DNA of 64,000 nt. It comes from an uncultured Methanosarcinaceae archaeon. Its GTDB lineage: Archaea; Halobacteriota; Methanosarcinia; Methanosarcinales; Methanosarcinaceae. Below the pieces are notes generated by a model, which searched no databases, was not told the origin of the DNA, and worked only from the letters and a program-made list of their open reading frames with translations. The stretch is from positions 32,001 through 96,000 of the forward strand of contig CAVSHT010000008.1 in NCBI GenBank assembly GCA_963727895.1, written 5' to 3'. A program made the translations under genes and the position numbers. This document shows positions 54,435-61,650 of the stretch, in pieces (the first letter of the stretch is position 1; the number at the start of each line of letters is the position of its first letter).

Positions 54435-54623
54435 TTAGTATCTTCTGTTTTCTCTGGGCGTCCTGTGGTTAGGAAGACAATCCCTGCAATAAACTGGTCT
54501 TTCTGGGTCAGGTTTGAAAGGCACTTCTGTCTCAACATTGCAGTCTGAACAGGTTGCTTTGTGCATTTCTCTTGGAGCGCCGAAATTAGAATTTCCTCTG
54601 AAGTTACTGTCATTAAAAGCCAT
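54435..54623 (-). CDS. CxxC-x17-CxxC zinc-ribbon protein, copy A
   Basis: CSDC-x17-CRDC with VPFKP..RPVY; SD AGGTGA. Confidence 0.9.
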   Translation of the reverse strand: MAFNDSNFRGNSNFGAPREMHKATCSDCNVETEVPFKPDPERPVYCRDCLPNHRTPRENRRY

Positions 54624-54675
54624 TTTTGTTTCACCTTTGTTTTTAGTTTTTGTTTTAGTTTTTATTAATTGTTTT

Positions 54676-54754
54676 AAAATAAGATTGTATAGAACTCTTT
54701 GATTAAAAACAAAAGTTGGTTTTTAATAACAGATTATTATACATCTCTTTATTT
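54676..54754 (-). promoter_or_regulatory. Conserved 5'-leader stem-loop, copy A (TATA box at 54780-54787)
   Basis: Inner stem ATTAAAAAC/GTTTTTAAT, outer GTATA/TATAC and AGAT/ATCT pairing; present before all five paralogues. Confidence 0.75.
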
Positions 54755-55192
54755 GTCAATATATATATAGCACTTAAACTATATAAATCTATTTATAAAC
54801 ATAGAGCACAATTTCTCAAATGAGAACAATTTCCAGATATAGTTTGCAGAAGAAGCAACAACCTATTTTCTGAGAACTCCTGAAAACAGAATTTGGTTAA
54901 CAGTTTTCCACTTTTGAAACAATCCTATAACAGAAAAAAATCAGTTTGATCTAAAAAAGCTGCCCTGCAAAGTGTCTCTCTTAAATCTACTAAAATAGCG
55001 GGTTTTTCAATTTCACTTTGATTCTTAAAAAACGTTTTCGGAGAGATTTCAGCATGCCGCCGGCAGAAAAATATATTTTAACTGAATCAAACGTGACAAA
55101 GAGTCCAGTTACAAAAGATATTCCACATTTGGTTTATTTTAAAAAATGGAAATGAAAAAAGTGTTGATGTAAACTTAGTTAACAAATAATAT

Positions 55193-55390
55193 TTAGTATC
55201 TATCTTGTCTGGGTTTTCTGTGTTTAGGAAGACATTCTCTACAGTAAACCGGTCTTTCCGGGTCAGGTTCAAAAGGTACTTCGGTTTCAACACCACAATC
55301 AGAACATTTTGTCTTGTGCATTTCCCTGGGAGCTCCAAAGCCTCCACGGTTGCTGTCTCTTCCTCTGCTTCCTCTGTCATTAAAGGCCAT
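55193..55390 (-). CDS. CxxC-x17-CxxC zinc-ribbon protein, copy B
   Basis: CSDC-x17-CREC; RG/RGG-rich N-terminus. Confidence 0.9.
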   Translation of the reverse strand: MAFNDRGSRGRDSNRGGFGAPREMHKTKCSDCGVETEVPFEPDPERPVYCRECLPKHRKPRQDRY

Positions 55391-55429
55391 TTGTTTTCAC
55401 CTTTGGTTTTAGTTGTTAGTTGTTGCTGA

Positions 55430-55509
55430 AAAATAAGATTGTATACGACTCTTTGGTTAAAAACAAAAATTGGTTTTTAACGACAGATTGTCATACATCT
55501 CTTTATTTT
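55430..55509 (-). promoter_or_regulatory. Conserved 5'-leader stem-loop, copy B (TATA box at 55535-55542)
   Basis: Inner stem GTTAAAAAC/GTTTTTAAC, compensatory relative to copy A. Confidence 0.75.
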
Positions 55510-56009
55510 CAATATCTATACATTGCATTTAAAATATATAAGTATTCCTATAATTATAAAAATATTTTCATTTAAATGAAAGAAAAATTTGTGATCAGGG
55601 TTTCTGGAGTAGATAAAATGCCTAAAATTCCAATTCCGGCTGATTATCCGATAAAGCAAAATTGTTGACCCTGCAAAATGTTATCTTTTAAACCTGCAAA
55701 AATTACGGGTTTTTTAGCTCTCTTTTCTTAGCAAATGTATAAGGGAAGATTTCAGAAGACCCGCGGCAGGAAAATTATCTCTAAATAGAAGAGGAAGTAA
55801 TAAACGAAATTTCAGCGTCCTTCTTTAGCAATTATAGACATTAAGTGCAAAATATATAAACAACTCATTGTCTATAGAACTTCTCCATGTCAACGCAGAC
55901 GCGTTCCTGCAGAAAAGTGAAATATATATTTCAGGCATCTTTTTTAGACGCCTTTATTTCAGATACCTATATAAAGCATCTTTATTCTGATACTTTTAGA
56001 TCAATAAAA

Positions 56010-56363
56010 TCAATACGTAATGTAGCCTTTTCGCTCAAGCCATTCGACCTGGGGTCTTGTGTATTTCCAGGTTACTTCGGCTTTGGAGTCTTGGACTTCC
56101 CAGGGATTGGCTATGACAACATCGCCTTCGTGAATCCACATTCTCTTCTTTTTAGAGCCCGGTATCCTTCCCATGCGGACAATTCCATCCATACACTGAA
56201 GTGTTACCCTTTTCGAGCCGAGTAAACATGCAACTGTTGCCAGGACTTCATTTCTATCCTTGCGGGGGATTCGTACCCTGGATACTTCCTGGGTACTTCC
56301 TGAGTTTACCGGTTTTGATGATCCTAATCTTCTTTTTCTGATAGTGCTTCTATAATTAGCCAG
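56010..56363 (-). CDS. eif1a: Archaeal translation initiation factor aIF1A paralogue 1 (probable CTG start)
   Basis: RVRIP...[33 protein letters not shown]...WKYT motif; GAGGA SD 6 nt before CTG. Confidence 0.92.
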
Positions 56364-56587
56364 GTTAATTCCTCGTTGGTATACTTTGATTAATTTTTGT
56401 AAAAGTTTGCTGTTGGGCAATTTGTACAGGTTCTCATTCTCGATATCGTTTTGTTCTTATTTTTCCTTGCCGCATGAGGGTGGAATAAATAAAGAAACAA
56501 AGAGAATAAACCAAAAAACAAAAAGAAAAGATGAATCAGGAGTTAATGTAAAATAATTACAAAATTAACGCCTAATACAGATTATCT

Positions 56588-56770
56588 TTAGAACTTCCTG
56601 TGGTTAGGAAGACAATCTCTGCAGTATACTGGCCTGCCTTCTGTGGGTTTGAACGGTACTTCGGTCTCAACACCGCAGTCAGAACAGGTCACTTTTGTCA
56701 TTTCCCTTGGTCCGCTGTTACCGCGGAAACCTCCGGAATTTCCCCTGAAATTTCTGTCATTAAAAGCCAT
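56588..56770 (-). CDS. CxxC-x17-CxxC zinc-ribbon protein, copy C
   Basis: Identical in protein to copy E despite several synonymous differences. Confidence 0.92.
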   Translation of the reverse strand: MAFNDRNFRGNSGGFRGNSGPREMTKVTCSDCGVETEVPFKPTEGRPVYCRDCLPNHRKF

Positions 56771-56809
56771 TTTCGTTTCACCTCCGCTCTAGCGGATAGT
56801 CAATAGTTT

Positions 56810-56886
56810 AAAAACAAGATTGTATAGACCCCTTGATTAAAAACGAAAATTGGTTTTTAATAACAGATTATACGTCTCTTTATTTT
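56810..56886 (-). promoter_or_regulatory. Conserved 5'-leader stem-loop, copy C (TATA box at 56912-56919)
   Basis: Same motif as copies A and B. Confidence 0.75.
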
Positions 56887-56936
56887 CAATACATACACTA
56901 TACATTCAAATTATATAAATGCATCTATACAATATA

Positions 56937-58760
56937 TAGTCACCACTTTAAATAATGCGACATTTTATGTTTAAATGTATGTTTCTCCCAAAATTCATTC
57001 ATTTCTTCCTTTAATGCTTCAATATTTTTAAATGATTTTATTGACGTTAAGTTTTCTCTTGTCACTTTCCAACAGTATTTTGTTGGGTTTCTATCTGGAG
57101 TAGCTGGAGGGAAAAATATTATTTTCAACCAATGCTTATTATTTTGATAAAATTCCTTTGCCTTTGCTGATCTATGCCATGTAGCTCTGTCCAGTAAAAG
57201 AAATATCCTTATCCCTATATCTCTTTGAAACTTGATTAATGATTTTAAGTAAGAGTCTGTATTCTGTGTAATTCCTAAATCATACCAATAAAACTCTCCA
57301 TTTTCAGTGTAGAATCCCCCAATATTGATTTTTGCTTTTGAACCACTTGTAAATTTAATAGGTTTTGAGCCCTTTATTGCCCAACATCTGGATCTATTTG
57401 AATCCACACAAAAATTACTGGAATTGGTAATTAAAAATAGATATATGTGCTTATAACATATATTTCTTCATGAACTGCCCAAAATGTAATAGTTCCAGTC
57501 ACAAAAAGAATGGTATAGTTGGTGGTCGTCAAAGGTACAAATGCCATGATTGTGGATATAACTATACAGTAGAGCTAAAATCAACTGCTTTTTCCACTTA
57601 TGTAAAAAAACAGGCTTTACAACTTTACCTTGAAGGATTGGGCTTTCGTTCAATAGGAAGAGTTTTAGGGGTGAGTCATGTTTCTGTCCAAAGATGGATC
57701 AAGAAATTTGGTCAGGAGTTAGAGGACCTAAAAAGTGAAAATGAAATATCTATTGTTGAAATGGATGAAATGCACACTTACATCGGTAACAAACAAAATA
57801 TTGCTGGATCTGGATTGCTGTTGATAGAGTTGAGAAAAAGTTCATCAGCTGCTCTTTTGGCAGCAGAGGAACGGAAACTGGAAAATTACTCTGGGAAAAA
57901 TTGAAGAAAAAAGAGATTGGAGAAGTGATGACAGATCACTGGAGAGCATATGCAGAGTTTCTTCCTGAAACGATTCATACTCAATCCAAAGCAGAAACGT
58001 ATACTGTTGAAGGATATAACAGCATATTGAGGCACTTTCTGGCAAGGTTGAGAAGAAAGACAAAGTGTTATACGAAGAGTCTTGAAATGCTAAAGTACTC
58101 GGTTATTCTATTGATGAAATACAGAAATAAAGAACTAGATATATTTAGATAACAATACCAAATTACTTTCATCAGGGGTAACGAATAAATGATTAGGGTT
58201 TAGTAATCTGTTTTTTGGACTTCTCTTATGAATTATTTTTTAAGCACCTCATTTCTTCTTTTAGATTGAGGTCGACATGTGATTTTTCTCAACCCTAAAT
58301 TTTTTAAAATTTGTCTCATTCTTGATTTGGAATAAGATACTCCAAATTTTTCCTTGACAAATTGAACTGCATCTTTTGTTTGCCAACCACGAGAATAAAC
58401 ATCATCTGTTGGTATAGGTTCTAAAAATGCCTCTCTTAACTCAGATAATTGTTCTGCAGTTAAAAAAGACTTGATTCCTCGACCAGGTTTACATTTAAGA
58501 CTAAACAAACCGTCGGTTTCAGCTCGTTTTATCCAGCGATGAACAGTTGAACGGTGAACTGAAAAATCGTCGGCAACTTTAGCGGGACTCAAACCATTTT
58601 TGATCAATAATAAGGCTTGAAGTTTAATCTACACGTTTTTGTTACAGGAATTTATGATAGCTGTAGAAATATCAGAAGTTGTAAACATTTCCAAACTCAT
58701 ATATAAAATTATATACTCATTTCAGGTATAATAATGTTGCAGTAAATACAGAGGTGACTA
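56937..58760 (-). mobile_element. IS630-family element (defective), interrupted by IS1 copy 8
   Basis: Imperfect ~30-bp IRs starting TAGTCACC, TA on both sides; HTH ORF 58233-58700 and DDE ORF (PDES, LLDRATWH, PDRNPTK). Confidence 0.88.
57420..58159 (+). mobile_element. IS1-family element, copy 8, nested in IS630
   Basis: 8-bp target duplication AAATTACT; slippery site disrupted. Confidence 0.93.
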
Positions 58761-59173
58761 TAGTACACAACTTCTCAAAAAAGAGAATTTATTTAAAAAT
58801 AATTTATGGAGAAGATAACAGCTTATTTCCTGATAGCTCCTGAAAACAGAATTCAGTTAACAGGTTTACTGGAAAGCAGCTCTACAAAGGAAAAGATCAC
58901 TGCTATCAAAAAAGGCCCTTCAAAATGCTTCTTATAAACCTGCAAAAATCACGGGTTTTCAAGATTTCTTTTATTAACAACCATACTCGGGGAATATTCC
59001 GGCAAGTTGCCGGCAGAAAAATATATTAACTGAATTAAACGTGAAAAAGAGGTTATTTAAATAGTATTTCTGGATTAATGTAACCTTCAAAATAGTATTT
59101 CTAGGTTAATGTGATTTTTAAAAAAGTGAAAAAGAAATAAGTGTTGATGCAAACTTAATTGCAGAAATAACAC

Positions 59174-59362
59174 TTAGTATCTTCTGTTTTCTCTGGGAGT
59201 CCTGTGGTTAGGAAGACATTCTCTGCAGTAAACCGGTCTTTCTGGGTCAGGTTTAAAAGGCACTTCGGTTTCAACACCACAATCAGAACAGGTTGTCTTA
59301 TGCATTTCTCTTGGAGCACCGAAATTAGAATTTCCTCTGAAGTTTCTGTCATTAAAAGCCAT
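59174..59362 (-). CDS. CxxC-x17-CxxC zinc-ribbon protein, copy D
   Basis: CSDC-x17-CREC; close paralogue of copy A. Confidence 0.9.
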   Translation of the reverse strand: MAFNDRNFRGNSNFGAPREMHKTTCSDCGVETEVPFKPDPERPVYCRECLPNHRTPRENRRY

Positions 59363-59413
59363 TTTTGTTTCACCTTTGTTTTATTTTTTGTTTTAGTTTT
59401 TATTAATTGTTTT

Positions 59414-59492
59414 AAAATAAGATTGTATAGAACTTTCTGTTTAAAATCAAAAATTGGTTTTTAACAACAGATGATTATACGGATCTTTATTT
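59414..59492 (-). promoter_or_regulatory. Conserved 5'-leader stem-loop, copy D (TATA box at 59520-59527)
   Basis: Same motif; TCTGT/ACAGA pairing. Confidence 0.72.
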
Positions 59493-59811
59493 ATCAACAC
59501 ACGTACATGAATCTTAATATATATAAATTTTTCTATAAGGGGAGAACCTTCCTCAAATGAGAACCTATCTTAGATACAGAGCTTATAGAACAAATAAAAA
59601 TGCCCCTTATATTCTGATTCCAGATGATCATTGATAAAGCAAATCTGAAGGTACTGCAAACACTCTCCCAAAATTGTATATAGAACCTTGCTCACATCAA
59701 CATTAGATATATTCCTGCAGAAAAGTAAAATGATGGGTTTCAGGCATCTTTTTCAGACACCTCTATTTCAATTATTTATTATTATATTCGGCATTTTTAT
59801 AATTTAAAAAC

Positions 59812-60162
59812 TTATTTAATATAGCCTTTCCGTTCGAGCCATTCTATCTGGGGCCTTGTGTATTTCCAGGTTATTTCGGCTTTGGAGTCCTGAATTTCCC
59901 ACGGGTTAGCAATAACAATATCGCCTTCACGAATCCACATTTTTTTATGTTTAGAGCCTGGGATTCTACCCATTCGTACAACTCCGTCCATACACTGAAG
60001 TGTTACTCTTTTCGAACCGAGTAAACACGCAACCGTTGCCAGGACTTCATTTCTGTCCTTGCGAGGGATTCTTACTCTGGATACTTCAGGGGCATCTCCT
60101 GATCTTACGGGATTTGTCGACCCTAATCTTTTTTTTCGAATAGTGCTTCTGTAATTCGCCAG
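59812..60162 (-). CDS. eif1a: aIF1A paralogue 2 (CTG start; absent from the ORF track)
   Basis: Hand translation: (M)[59 protein letters not shown]...WLERKGYIK*, 116 aa, uninterrupted; SD AAGGAG. Confidence 0.92.
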
Positions 60163-60406
60163 GTTAATTTCTCCTTGAGGATCTTGATTTAATTTGGATC
60201 TTGATTTAATTTATATCTAACTTGAAAATTGAATAGTTCGCATCGATTATTGTTCTCTATATTGTTTTGTTCTTACTTTTTCTGCTTCGATAGTGAAAAT
60301 AAGTAGAGAAACAAAGAGAACAAACCAAAAAAAACAAAAAGAAAAGATGAATCAGGGATTAATGTAAAACTTAATTACAAATTAATAGCACCTGATGCAG
60401 ATTATC

Positions 60407-60589
60407 TTAGAATTTCCTGTGGTTAGGAAGACAGTCTCTGCAGTATACTGGCCTACCTTCGGTGGGTTTGAATGGTACTTCTGTCTCAACACCGCAGTCG
60501 GAACAGGTCACTTTTGTCATTTCCCTTGGTCCGCTGTTACCGCGGAAACCTCCGGAATTTCCCCTGAAATTTCTGTCATTAAAAGCCAT
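60407..60589 (-). CDS. CxxC-x17-CxxC zinc-ribbon protein, copy E
   Basis: CSDC-x17-CRDC; SD GGAGGTGA. Confidence 0.92.
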   Translation of the reverse strand: MAFNDRNFRGNSGGFRGNSGPREMTKVTCSDCGVETEVPFKPTEGRPVYCRDCLPNHRKF

Positions 60590-60628
60590 TTTCGTTTCAC
60601 CTCCGCTCTAGCGGATAGTCAATAGTTT

Positions 60629-60706
60629 AAAAACAAGATTGTATATACCTTTAAATTAAAAAACAAAAATTGGTTTTTAATAACAGATTATACGTCTCTT
60701 TATTTT
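60629..60706 (-). promoter_or_regulatory. Conserved 5'-leader stem-loop, copy E (TATA box at 60732-60739)
   Basis: Same motif as copies A-D. Confidence 0.72.
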
Positions 60707-60949
60707 CAATAGATACCTTACACAGGCAAATTATATAAATGCATCTATACAAAGGAATATACTATTAAAGTGATAAGAAATTTTATTGTCAGTATTTATG
60801 GACGAAGTACTAAAGTCTAAACTTCTTATTTCGGTTGTTCATAGCTAAAGCAAAGTCAATTTTCTCTGAAAAGGGCTCCTTATAAATTCGCAAAAAGAAG
60901 CATAAACTAATACAAAAATTGAAATTTACAGATATTTTTACAAGTCAGG

Positions 60950-61650
60950 TCAGAGAACCAATTCACCCTTTATCCAAAGTTCATCAAATTTTGTCTTGAA
61001 TCGCTTTGCATATGATTCATCATATATTCTTGTCATACCGAGGTTTCTACTTATATTGAACTGGTCTTCAATATCTAGCAGGGTTATCTTAGAATCAATG
61101 ATTGCAAAATTGTATTCGGTTTCTATAATTTTTACTTCCATTATATCCTTAATATGGTGTTTAAATGACATATCTTCTATTAAATCAATAAGCTCTTTTA
61201 ATGATGGCAGTAATTGTGATCTCGGATCTAAAATTTTAACTTTTATGCCACGCTGTACTAAACTCAAATAAGCTTTGCAAAAGGTGGATATTGAAGCATC
61301 ATATAGCTCCGATCCTCCTGGCTTGTACTTAACATGGATTACAAAACATATTTCATGCTCGATTTTCTCAAAAGATGAAGTTACCATTAGATGAAGTTAC
61401 CATTTCTTTTAGTTCATTATTACGAAGCCTGTCAGGCCAGAAGACAGTTTCAACATTTTGTGGTAAATTGTCGTTGCAAAGTTCCCTTTCTATTTCATCA
61501 AATGTTTCTTTGAGCATTTTGAGTTCATTGAGTGTTTCTTCCTCTTTTCTTTTGTACATGAGTTTAAATGCGCTTTTAGGATCAACCGCCTGGTATCTCT
61601 TTGGTCGCAACGGTTGGATTTCGACAAGCTCATAGCTTTTGAGGACTTTG
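60950..61650 (-). pseudogene. TrmB-family transcriptional regulator remnant
   Basis: LVEIQPLRPKRYQAVDP and RGIKVKIL...FAIIDSK motifs; N-terminal HTH missing; 16-bp duplication at 61373-61404 shifts the frame. Confidence 0.7.

Follow-up and report, generated by a model that had tools for sequence, protein, structure and literature searches.

CUG start codons in the aIF1A genes of a Methanosarcinaceae archaeon, and a possible feedback on initiation fidelity

Why would the gene for a universal translation initiation factor begin with CUG rather than with AUG, and what could keep such a codon in place? The question is raised by two paralogous genes for initiation factor aIF1A in a stretch of 64,000 nucleotides from an uncultured Methanosarcinaceae archaeon (assembly GCA_963727895.1, contig CAVSHT010000008.1, positions 32,001 to 96,000 of the forward strand), to which we refer in its entirety as the window. 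An initial annotation, made from the letters alone, had both paralogues initiating at CUG and placed the two CTG codons exactly where they lie (Table 1); it proved to be understated, given that all four paralogues of the genome and most of the phylum are alike. Our comparative analysis indicates that CUG is very probably the true and selected start codon of aIF1A. We further propose, at somewhat less than an even chance, that the codon may be retained for start-codon-fidelity autoregulation of the factor.

The start of aIF1A in the window and its genome

Profile matches identify both window genes as aIF1A. PF01176 matches copies 1 and 2 with E-values of 6e-18 and 8e-19 (64.7 and 67.4 bits; cut-off 30.2), TIGR00523 with 120.7 and 118.9 bits (cut-off 102.9), and NF003085 scores 162 bits for the window aIF1A (cut-off 92). 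The PF01176 profile was covered over positions 1-64 of 64, and internal stops are absent from all four matches in the genome. The proteins of the two copies are 87% identical. Read on the minus strand, the start region of copy 1 is CGAGGAATTAAC-CTG-GCT-AAT-TAT and that of copy 2 is AAGGAGAAATTAAC-CTG-GCG-AAT-TAC.

For copy 2, the initial annotation had described an in-frame TAA 17 codons upstream, no ATG, GTG or TTG in between and a next ATG inside the OB fold, with all of which the sequence agrees. The 16 codons between the TAA (60213-60211) and the CTG hold none of the three canonical starts, and the sole canonical-start open reading frame (ORF) in this frame, 59812..59991, encodes just 59 aa and begins at the Met of QCMDG, which sits within the PF01176 domain (residues 38-100). 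In copy 1 a TTG (56420) does lie in frame, 19 codons 5' of the CTG. By comparison with orthologues this TTG is not conserved: among 29 copy-1-type loci (L005-L033), four have any ATG, GTG or TTG in the upstream open frame, every one at a different distance, and 13 have a stop at most 4 codons upstream. Similarity between the copies had also been placed as beginning at the CTG; in our alignment (A1) it is indeed lost upstream, at about columns 131-205, yet it resumes some 15 nt before the CTG, at the Shine-Dalgarno (SD) site.

The genome's own 16S rRNA 3' end reads ...CTGGATCACCTCCT (the 16S 3' end ...GGATCACCTCCT occurs twice in the genome), and GGAGG, GAGGT and GAGGTGAT are therefore true 16S complements. 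GAGGA, AAGGAG and AGAGGTATC stand before the aIF1A CTGs of the genome, complementary to 16S and 5-9 nt before the start, as in an SD-led mRNA. The assembly (3.67 Mb in 19 contigs, 84% complete) holds four aIF1A genes, including the two in the window. The third (L003) reads GAGGAATTAAC CTG GCT AAC TAT, a context identical to that of copy 1. L004, the fourth, has diverged furthest (68% identity) and reads TAA AGA GGT ATC AAA CTG GTA GAC; a TAA closes its frame 5 codons before the CTG, and no canonical start follows in frame until the GTG of codon 22. The arrangement of SD and CTG is present in all four paralogues. The other initiation-factor genes examined in the same genome carry ATG, namely aIF1 (CGGAGG, 12 nt, ATG), aIF2beta (AAAGGAG, 7 nt, ATG), aIF5B (GAGGT, 7 nt, ATG) and aIF2alpha, so that among the five checked the CTG start is confined to aIF1A.

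How unusual is a CTG start in this genome? SD match alone, used to choose starts in long ORFs, gave too noisy a background. We instead took open frames of 100 codons or more and counted, codon by codon, the sites among their first 13 codons that were preceded by an SD (pairing of at least 5, spacing 6-8). The SD-preceded share was 12.9% for ATG, 6.4% for GTG, 5.6% for TTG, 2.0% for all codons and 1.1% for CTT and CTC. CTG was barely enriched at 22 of 856 (2.6%), a count that includes the L004-type aIF1A and a plausible msrB. CTG starts thus exist in the genome but are rare, and aIF1A supplies four. A stricter screen for further CTG starts left four sites, of which one (msrB) is plausible; its filters also removed the aIF1A genes, and it is not a census. 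The candidate is a SelR (MsrB) gene on the plus strand of contig C9 of genome G000, with its CTG at 357974 in the context TATAGGGGGTTTACAA CTG GCA CAG. Its frame is closed 8 codons upstream, no ATG, GTG or TTG lies within 25 codons, the domain runs from residue 17, and the gene appears to start at CTG.

A riboswitch or thermometer at the aIF1A start was also considered and dropped, as the predicted folds of 120 nt around the genome's four CTGs were no more stable than those of shuffled sequences (z +0.24 to +1.55). Compared with Rfam at E-values up to 1, positions 54500-61500 gave one noise match only, to a plant microRNA model (23.8 bits against a gathering threshold of 90).

Start codons of aIF1A across the phylum

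Searches at the level of the family, the class and (with TIGR00523) the phylum found aIF1A matches in 172 of 177, 264 of 269 and 121 of 121 genomes, to which 80 named records from a species-representative collection were added. The loci retrieved were the best 30 per search together with hand-picked regions covering each listed genus and family, and removal of duplicates, and of genes with under 130 nt of upstream sequence, left 257 distinct genes. The surveyed genes are related, and Methanosarcina is over-represented among them.

CTG, not ATG, predominates at the orthologous position. An in-frame CTG stands behind an SD-like site (pairing of at least 4, aligned spacing 6-8) in 218 of the 257 genes, the next codon type by the same test being GAA with 52; judged by these counts, the frequency of CTG behind an SD in aIF1A is far above chance. 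A blind rule, which searched the 150 nt ahead of the conserved core for the best 16S complement and then took the in-frame codon at an aligned spacing of 6-8, returned CTG in 187 of the 257 genes and TTG in 12, the remainder being mostly chance SD-like strings in the Glu/Gly-rich tail that outscored the real SD. The 39 genes that did not pass the CTG test were read singly and gave TTG (17), ATG (11), ATA (3), ATT (1), ATC (1), GTG (3, one doubtful), TTA (2) and CTG with a degenerate SD (1); seven extra genes from five further families gave CTG (2), ATG (4) and GTG (1). The commonest aligned spacing between SD and start was 7 nt, in 164 of 242 genes scored.

The substitutions tolerated at this position are informative. 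CTT, CTC and CTA are never found there, and yet together they make up 55% of the 1378 internal leucine codons of the 218 genes (CTT 29%, CTG 26%, CTC 21%, TTA 11%, TTG 8%, CTA 5%). Two invariant leucine positions have CTG in only 46 of 210 and 48 of 208 genes, and the genome-wide share of CTG among leucine codons is 16% in the window's genome. Since substitutions at the position follow the spectrum of initiation codons and not that of leucine codons, it appears to be constrained as NTG/ATH.

The boundaries of the reading frame point the same way. Of the 218 genes, 124 have their frame closed by a stop 0-5 codons ahead of the CTG (immediately adjacent in seven), 183 have no ATG, GTG or TTG in the upstream open frame, and 159 have none anywhere ahead of the conserved core. 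In 47 genes of the LANY type, codons 2-6 change almost solely synonymously (GCT/GCA/GCC/GCG, AAT/AAC, TAT/TAC, AGC/AGT), whereas TAA and TGA both occur among positions -1 to -5. Between genera the tails that follow the CTG differ wholly (LANYRS, LADLKK, LYKKN, LDRKV, LSPNS, LENKD, LQYKK, LSDEE and others), with SD and CTG constant. Two codons before the CTG, ATT (48) or ATC (46) is frequent among the 218 genes, and GAT, GTT, GTC or GGT occupies the same place in 100; the ATT or ATC is best read from its context as part of an extended SD (GGT-ATC, GGA-ATT, GGT-GAT), and it is out of frame, or separated by a stop, in L025, L031, L069, L070, L176, L178, L254 and L262. Codon 8 of the LANY type, from which 109-110-aa NCBI proteins start, encodes I in 22 genes, K in 14, V in 6, M in 3 and N in 1.

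Public protein records implicitly contain the CUG start, yet conflict on its position. Records P0006, P0019, P0024, P0038, P0044, P0073 and P0021 place the initial M of orthologous Methanosarcina aIF1A proteins in three ways: at the CTG, for a length of 116-117 aa; at the Ile8 codon, for 109-110 aa; or at an ATG far upstream, for 161 aa (one M. barkeri protein). JGI records give the first residue of aIF1A as L. In genes of family f5 and similar ones (L124-L126, L233, L235, L236, L249, L251-L253), the frame is open far upstream, up to 398 codons, and GTG and TTG codons occur within the SD of the f5 type (GAG GTG TTG TAT CTG).

The CTG start is widely distributed, being found in 14 of the 16 genera of Methanosarcinaceae and, among the 29 families of the phylum with a locus read, in 20. 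Among the named records, it occurs in 14 of 14 from Methanosarcina and Methanosarcinaceae, in Methanococcoides and Methanolobus, in the three assessable Methanoperedens records and in all those listed from Methanothrix, Methanosaeta and Methanotrichaceae, one of which has an ATG directly before the CTG. Methanocellales have CTG in two records, and Methanocella and Methanocellaceae have TTG in two; Archaeoglobaceae and Archaeoglobus have CTG in seven and TTG in one; Methanoregulaceae have CTG in two, and three genes there that belong to a different paralogue type have ATA or ATC. Genes sampled with the haloarchaeal N-terminus MSD..GR.NLRMP start at ATG, with one GTG, and the two remaining genera of Methanosarcinaceae (g7 and g12) use ATG.

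Codon and SD vary together. A strong SD is mostly paired with CUG or UUG, and AUG mostly with no recognisable SD: the ATG genes of g7, g12 and the haloarchaeon-like families are without the GAGGTGAT-type site, L162 being the single exception found. On a FastTree phylogeny of the conserved core, with the start region excluded, the start classes require 19 changes; 5 of 200 shuffles, those printed, required 37-38. As the tree is short and unrooted, the count is a rough one and silent on direction. Five genes (L130, L193, L270, L273 and L275), one of them Methanotrichaceae-like and the others from Methanoregulaceae-like lineages, have ATA, ATT or ATC at the start defined by the SD, in L193 directly after an in-frame TGA, and thereby fall in the same codon class as the start of bacterial infC.

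Fidelity feedback and its alternatives

In bacteria, feedback through the AUU start codon of infC, the gene for IF3, has been demonstrated. The aIF1A genes resemble infC in being core initiation-factor genes with a conserved near-cognate start behind a functional SD, whose product belongs to the machinery that judges that very codon. They differ in that infC is bacterial and IF3 is unrelated to aIF1A, which is the orthologue of IF1 (PMC4705826; papers cited by PMC identifier are drawn on in excerpt), in the codon used, CUG as against AUU, and in that the feedback demonstrated for infC is for aIF1A a proposal. In eukaryotes, eIF1 is autoregulated through a poor AUG context and eIF5 through upstream ORFs, a homeostasis of stringency (PMC3326321, PMC6237735). 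Here too a suboptimal start lies on the factor's own mRNA, and aIF1A stands within the shared core of e/aIF1, e/aIF1A and e/aIF2. The regulated genes, however, are eIF1 and eIF5 and not eIF1A, the devices are a weak Kozak context or upstream ORFs on scanned mRNAs rather than a non-AUG codon on an SD-led mRNA, and aIF1 of the window's genome starts with ATG. Archaea do keep initiation factors in homeostasis at the level of translation, as Haloferax volcanii shows: translation of one aIF2beta paralogue rises tenfold there on deletion of the other (PMC3828320). This case concerns another factor, and among haloarchaeon-like aIF1A genes the starts in our sample are ATG or GTG.

The aIF1A mRNAs of this Methanosarcina, and of most of the phylum, are very probably translated from a CUG about 7 nt behind a strong SD complementary to the 16S 3' end. 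Under the feedback that we propose, the weak codon would be under selection as the element that ties aIF1A synthesis to the strictness of the 30S complex (aIF1, aIF1A, aIF2-GTP-Met-tRNAi) towards near-cognate codons, and because the strong SD would secure mRNA loading, acceptance of the codon would become the rate-limiting and factor-sensitive step. Abundant aIF1A, together with aIF1, would render the complex more dynamic, and CUG would be rejected more often; scarce aIF1A would allow it to be accepted more often. More aIF1A in the presence of aIF1 would thus mean more rejection of CUG and, therefore, negative feedback, a homeostasis that would embrace all paralogues simultaneously.

Feedback gains in plausibility because the suboptimal start is conserved phylum-wide among orthologues, as it is in systems of the infC and eIF1 type (CTG in 218 + 1 of the 257 genes), because a weak codon is coupled with a strong, optimally spaced SD, because the four other factor genes have ATG, and because of toeprinting with P. 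abyssi components on AUG mRNAs, in which aIF1A and aIF1 cooperate in start-codon selection (PMC6237735). In the same study, the dynamic state into which aIF1 brings the pre-initiation complex is strengthened by aIF1A (PMC6237735). Furthermore, aIF1 of S. solfataricus discriminates against non-AUG mRNA (PMC4705826), and aIF1 destabilises non-AUG complexes (PMC4705826, PMC6237735). The tail extensions of eIF1A, which tune stringency in the initial annotation's argument, are termed eukaryote-specific in a review (PMC4705826), and that argument is for this reason one of analogy only.

Several points weigh against a selected CUG or against feedback through it. The sign of the feedback is uncertain and could differ if aIF1 is limiting; moreover, it is aIF1 rather than aIF1A that is known as a fidelity factor in archaea, and aIF1 here has ATG. 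CUG has been exchanged for UUG, AUG, AUH or GUG some 19 times on the tree and is in that sense dispensable, and whole lineages (the haloarchaeon-like families, g7 and g12) subsist with AUG. Because a few other genes, such as msrB, may use CTG, CUG is perhaps simply tolerated in these organisms. Raw gene counts overstate independence, given that the genes are related and dominated by Methanosarcina. The start is ambiguous where ATA (23 of 218 genes) or ATG (one, L237) directly precedes the CTG, or where ATG lies two codons before it (two genes). Finally, L022 and L032 (genus g1) have TTA at the start position behind a perfect AAGGAGGAATTAAC, with a tail matching the NCBI M. barkeri protein P0044, which is annotated from the Ile8 codon; as TTA is two mismatches from AUG, it fits no start model, and these genes may be decaying copies or may start at the ATT two codons upstream.

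The strongest competitor, which we nevertheless regard as rather unlikely, would be a static tuning of yield, in which CUG is the true start and senses nothing: the strong SD would load ribosomes and the weak codon cap output, keeping aIF1A in stoichiometry with ribosomes. The comparative evidence for CTG as the start applies to it equally, the pairing of strong SDs with CUG or UUG and of AUG with no SD resembles compensation of yield, and the repeated replacement by UUG, AUG or AUH indicates that other combinations are viable. A fixed yield, however, would be attainable through a weaker SD, another spacing or codon bias, and should drift; instead, one rare codon is retained by 20 of the 29 families sampled, as well as by all the paralogues of a genome in which CTG is otherwise barely a start and occurs in one of the five initiation-factor genes checked. 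More doubtful is that CUG is a sensor of some other input, reporting the level of aIF1, the supply of aIF2-GTP-Met-tRNAi, temperature or stress, in a feed-forward rather than an autoregulatory manner. It is aIF1 that rejects non-AUG complexes (PMC4705826, PMC6237735), the copy-1-type paralogues of Methanosarcina lie in conserved zinc-ribbon modules that may point to condition-specific expression, and the paralogues diverge chiefly in their N-terminal tails. Against such a sensor stand the lack of any predicted thermometer-like structure in the four CTG regions and of any Rfam match above noise in 54500-61500, and the RNA contigs described below show presence only.

That the protein starts elsewhere, with CTG an ordinary leucine, is highly improbable: the frequent in-frame ATT or ATC at -2, the 'MRK...' proteins beginning at codon 8, the M. 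barkeri protein started far upstream, the upstream TTG of copy 1 and the two TTA genes, which need another start, would each suggest a different site (an internal Met being a further one), but the -2 codon lies only 1-2 nt from the SD core, is another codon in 100 of 218 genes and, in the eight loci named above, is not in frame or is separated from the CTG by a stop, codon 8 is Ile in just 22 of 47 genes and nonexistent in other paralogue types, 183 of 218 genes have no upstream canonical codon, residues 2-6 appear constrained at the protein level, and a leucine codon would show the CTT or CTC that is never seen.

The zinc-ribbon module, transcripts and wider meaning

The window carries a duplicated module of zinc ribbon, aIF1A and zinc ribbon, the two copies being separated by insertion elements (Table 1). 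Among 93 aIF1A genes with enough flanking sequence, 29 have a same-strand zinc-ribbon homologue ending less than 700 nt (about 225-435 nt) upstream; all 29 are of the copy-1 type and all lie within the genus.

Table 1. Features of the aIF1A modules in the window (window coordinates).
Feature	Position	Strand	Remarks
aIF1A paralogue 1, coding sequence from CTG	56010..56363	minus	117 aa + stop; PF01176, TIGR00523/NF003085 above cut-offs; RNA-library contigs in 4 runs
CTG initiation codon, paralogue 1	56361..56363	minus	orthologous position CTG in 218 genes (+1 with weak SD) of 257
SD-like GAGGA, paralogue 1	56370..56374	minus	followed by 6-nt spacer ATTAAC; complements own 16S rRNA 3' end ...GGATCACCTCCT
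aIF1A paralogue 2, coding sequence from CTG	59812..60162	minus	116 aa + stop; PF01176, TIGR00523 matches
CTG initiation codon, paralogue 2	60160..60162	minus	without ATG/GTG/TTG back to in-frame TAA
SD-like AAGGAG, paralogue 2	60171..60176	minus	followed by 8-nt spacer AAATTAAC; complements 16S 3' end
In-frame TAA closing paralogue 2 frame	60211..60213	minus	17 codons 5' of CTG
CxxC-x17-CxxC zinc ribbon, 60 aa	56588..56770	minus	224 nt upstream of paralogue 1; PF23477, TIGR04272
CxxC-x17-CxxC zinc ribbon	60407..60589	minus	upstream of paralogue 2; protein identical to that of 56588-56770
CxxC-x17-CxxC zinc ribbon, 65 aa	55193..55390	minus	downstream of paralogue 1; profile matches
CxxC-x17-CxxC zinc ribbon, 62 aa	59174..59362	minus	downstream of paralogue 2; profile match
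IS630-like transposase gene between modules	DDE_3 56940-57407; HTH 58233-58607	minus	split by IS1-like element
IS1-like element inside IS630-like gene	HTH ORF 57470-57904; DDE_Tnp_IS1 ORF 57901-58152	plus	

On the minus strand, the roughly 130 nt 3' of the upstream zinc-ribbon genes (56441-56560 and 60261-60380; A1 columns 1-130) are near-identical between the modules and rich in T-runs, and the approximately 70 nt just before the SD have diverged. The near-identical T-rich stretches could be a terminator or a promoter region. Upstream of single-copy-type aIF1A genes from several genera of Methanosarcinaceae, a conserved CGCAACCTTTAACAAYAT motif occurs about 50-60 nt 5' of the CTG (L072, L080, L083, L097 and L103, also L068 and L079); its place and composition fit a putative BRE/TATA promoter, which would leave a 5' untranslated region of about 30 nt.

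Copy 1 is covered by metatranscriptome contigs, 95-99% alike, from four runs. In each run a single contig, with its limits at 56236 or 56251 and at 56675-56711, takes in part of aIF1A, the CTG and the 3' end of the zinc-ribbon gene upstream, and the contigs thereby join the two genes. Differences are listed at 56375 and 56388 and none at the CTG (56361-56363); such contigs report presence only, and neither strand, transcript ends nor translation, with rare variants dropped and uncovered parts uninformative.

Our full-text literature searches returned no paper on a CUG start of aIF1A or on start-codon feedback in archaea, and the terms 'CUG', 'near-cognate' and 'autoregulat' are all absent from a 2020 review of archaeal initiation. 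In the excerpted text of a Ribo-seq paper on M. mazei, CTG is mentioned only for 5% of new small ORFs (PMC11456600). For bacteria and eukaryotes it is established that start stringency can be controlled through a weak start on the gene of the factor itself; no archaeal example was found in the literature searched. A practical consequence concerns annotation, as ORF finders limited to ATG, GTG and TTG miss or truncate aIF1A; indeed, copy 2 appears to them only as a 59-aa fragment.

A near-cognate start on a universal initiation factor, kept across a phylum, offers a concrete and testable route into the control of initiation fidelity in archaea, and Methanosarcina species are genetically tractable. 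It is tempting to speculate, more tentatively than for the feedback itself, that an ancient archaeal fidelity feedback acts on aIF1A through its CUG, older than the split of Archaeoglobi, Methanomicrobia, Methanocellia and Methanosarcinia, that it was abandoned together with SD-led initiation in haloarchaea, and that Methanosarcina expanded it into arrays of 3-5 CUG-started paralogues whose basic N-terminal tails differ. Were this so, the differing basic tails of the Methanosarcina paralogues could set different states of ribosome stringency.

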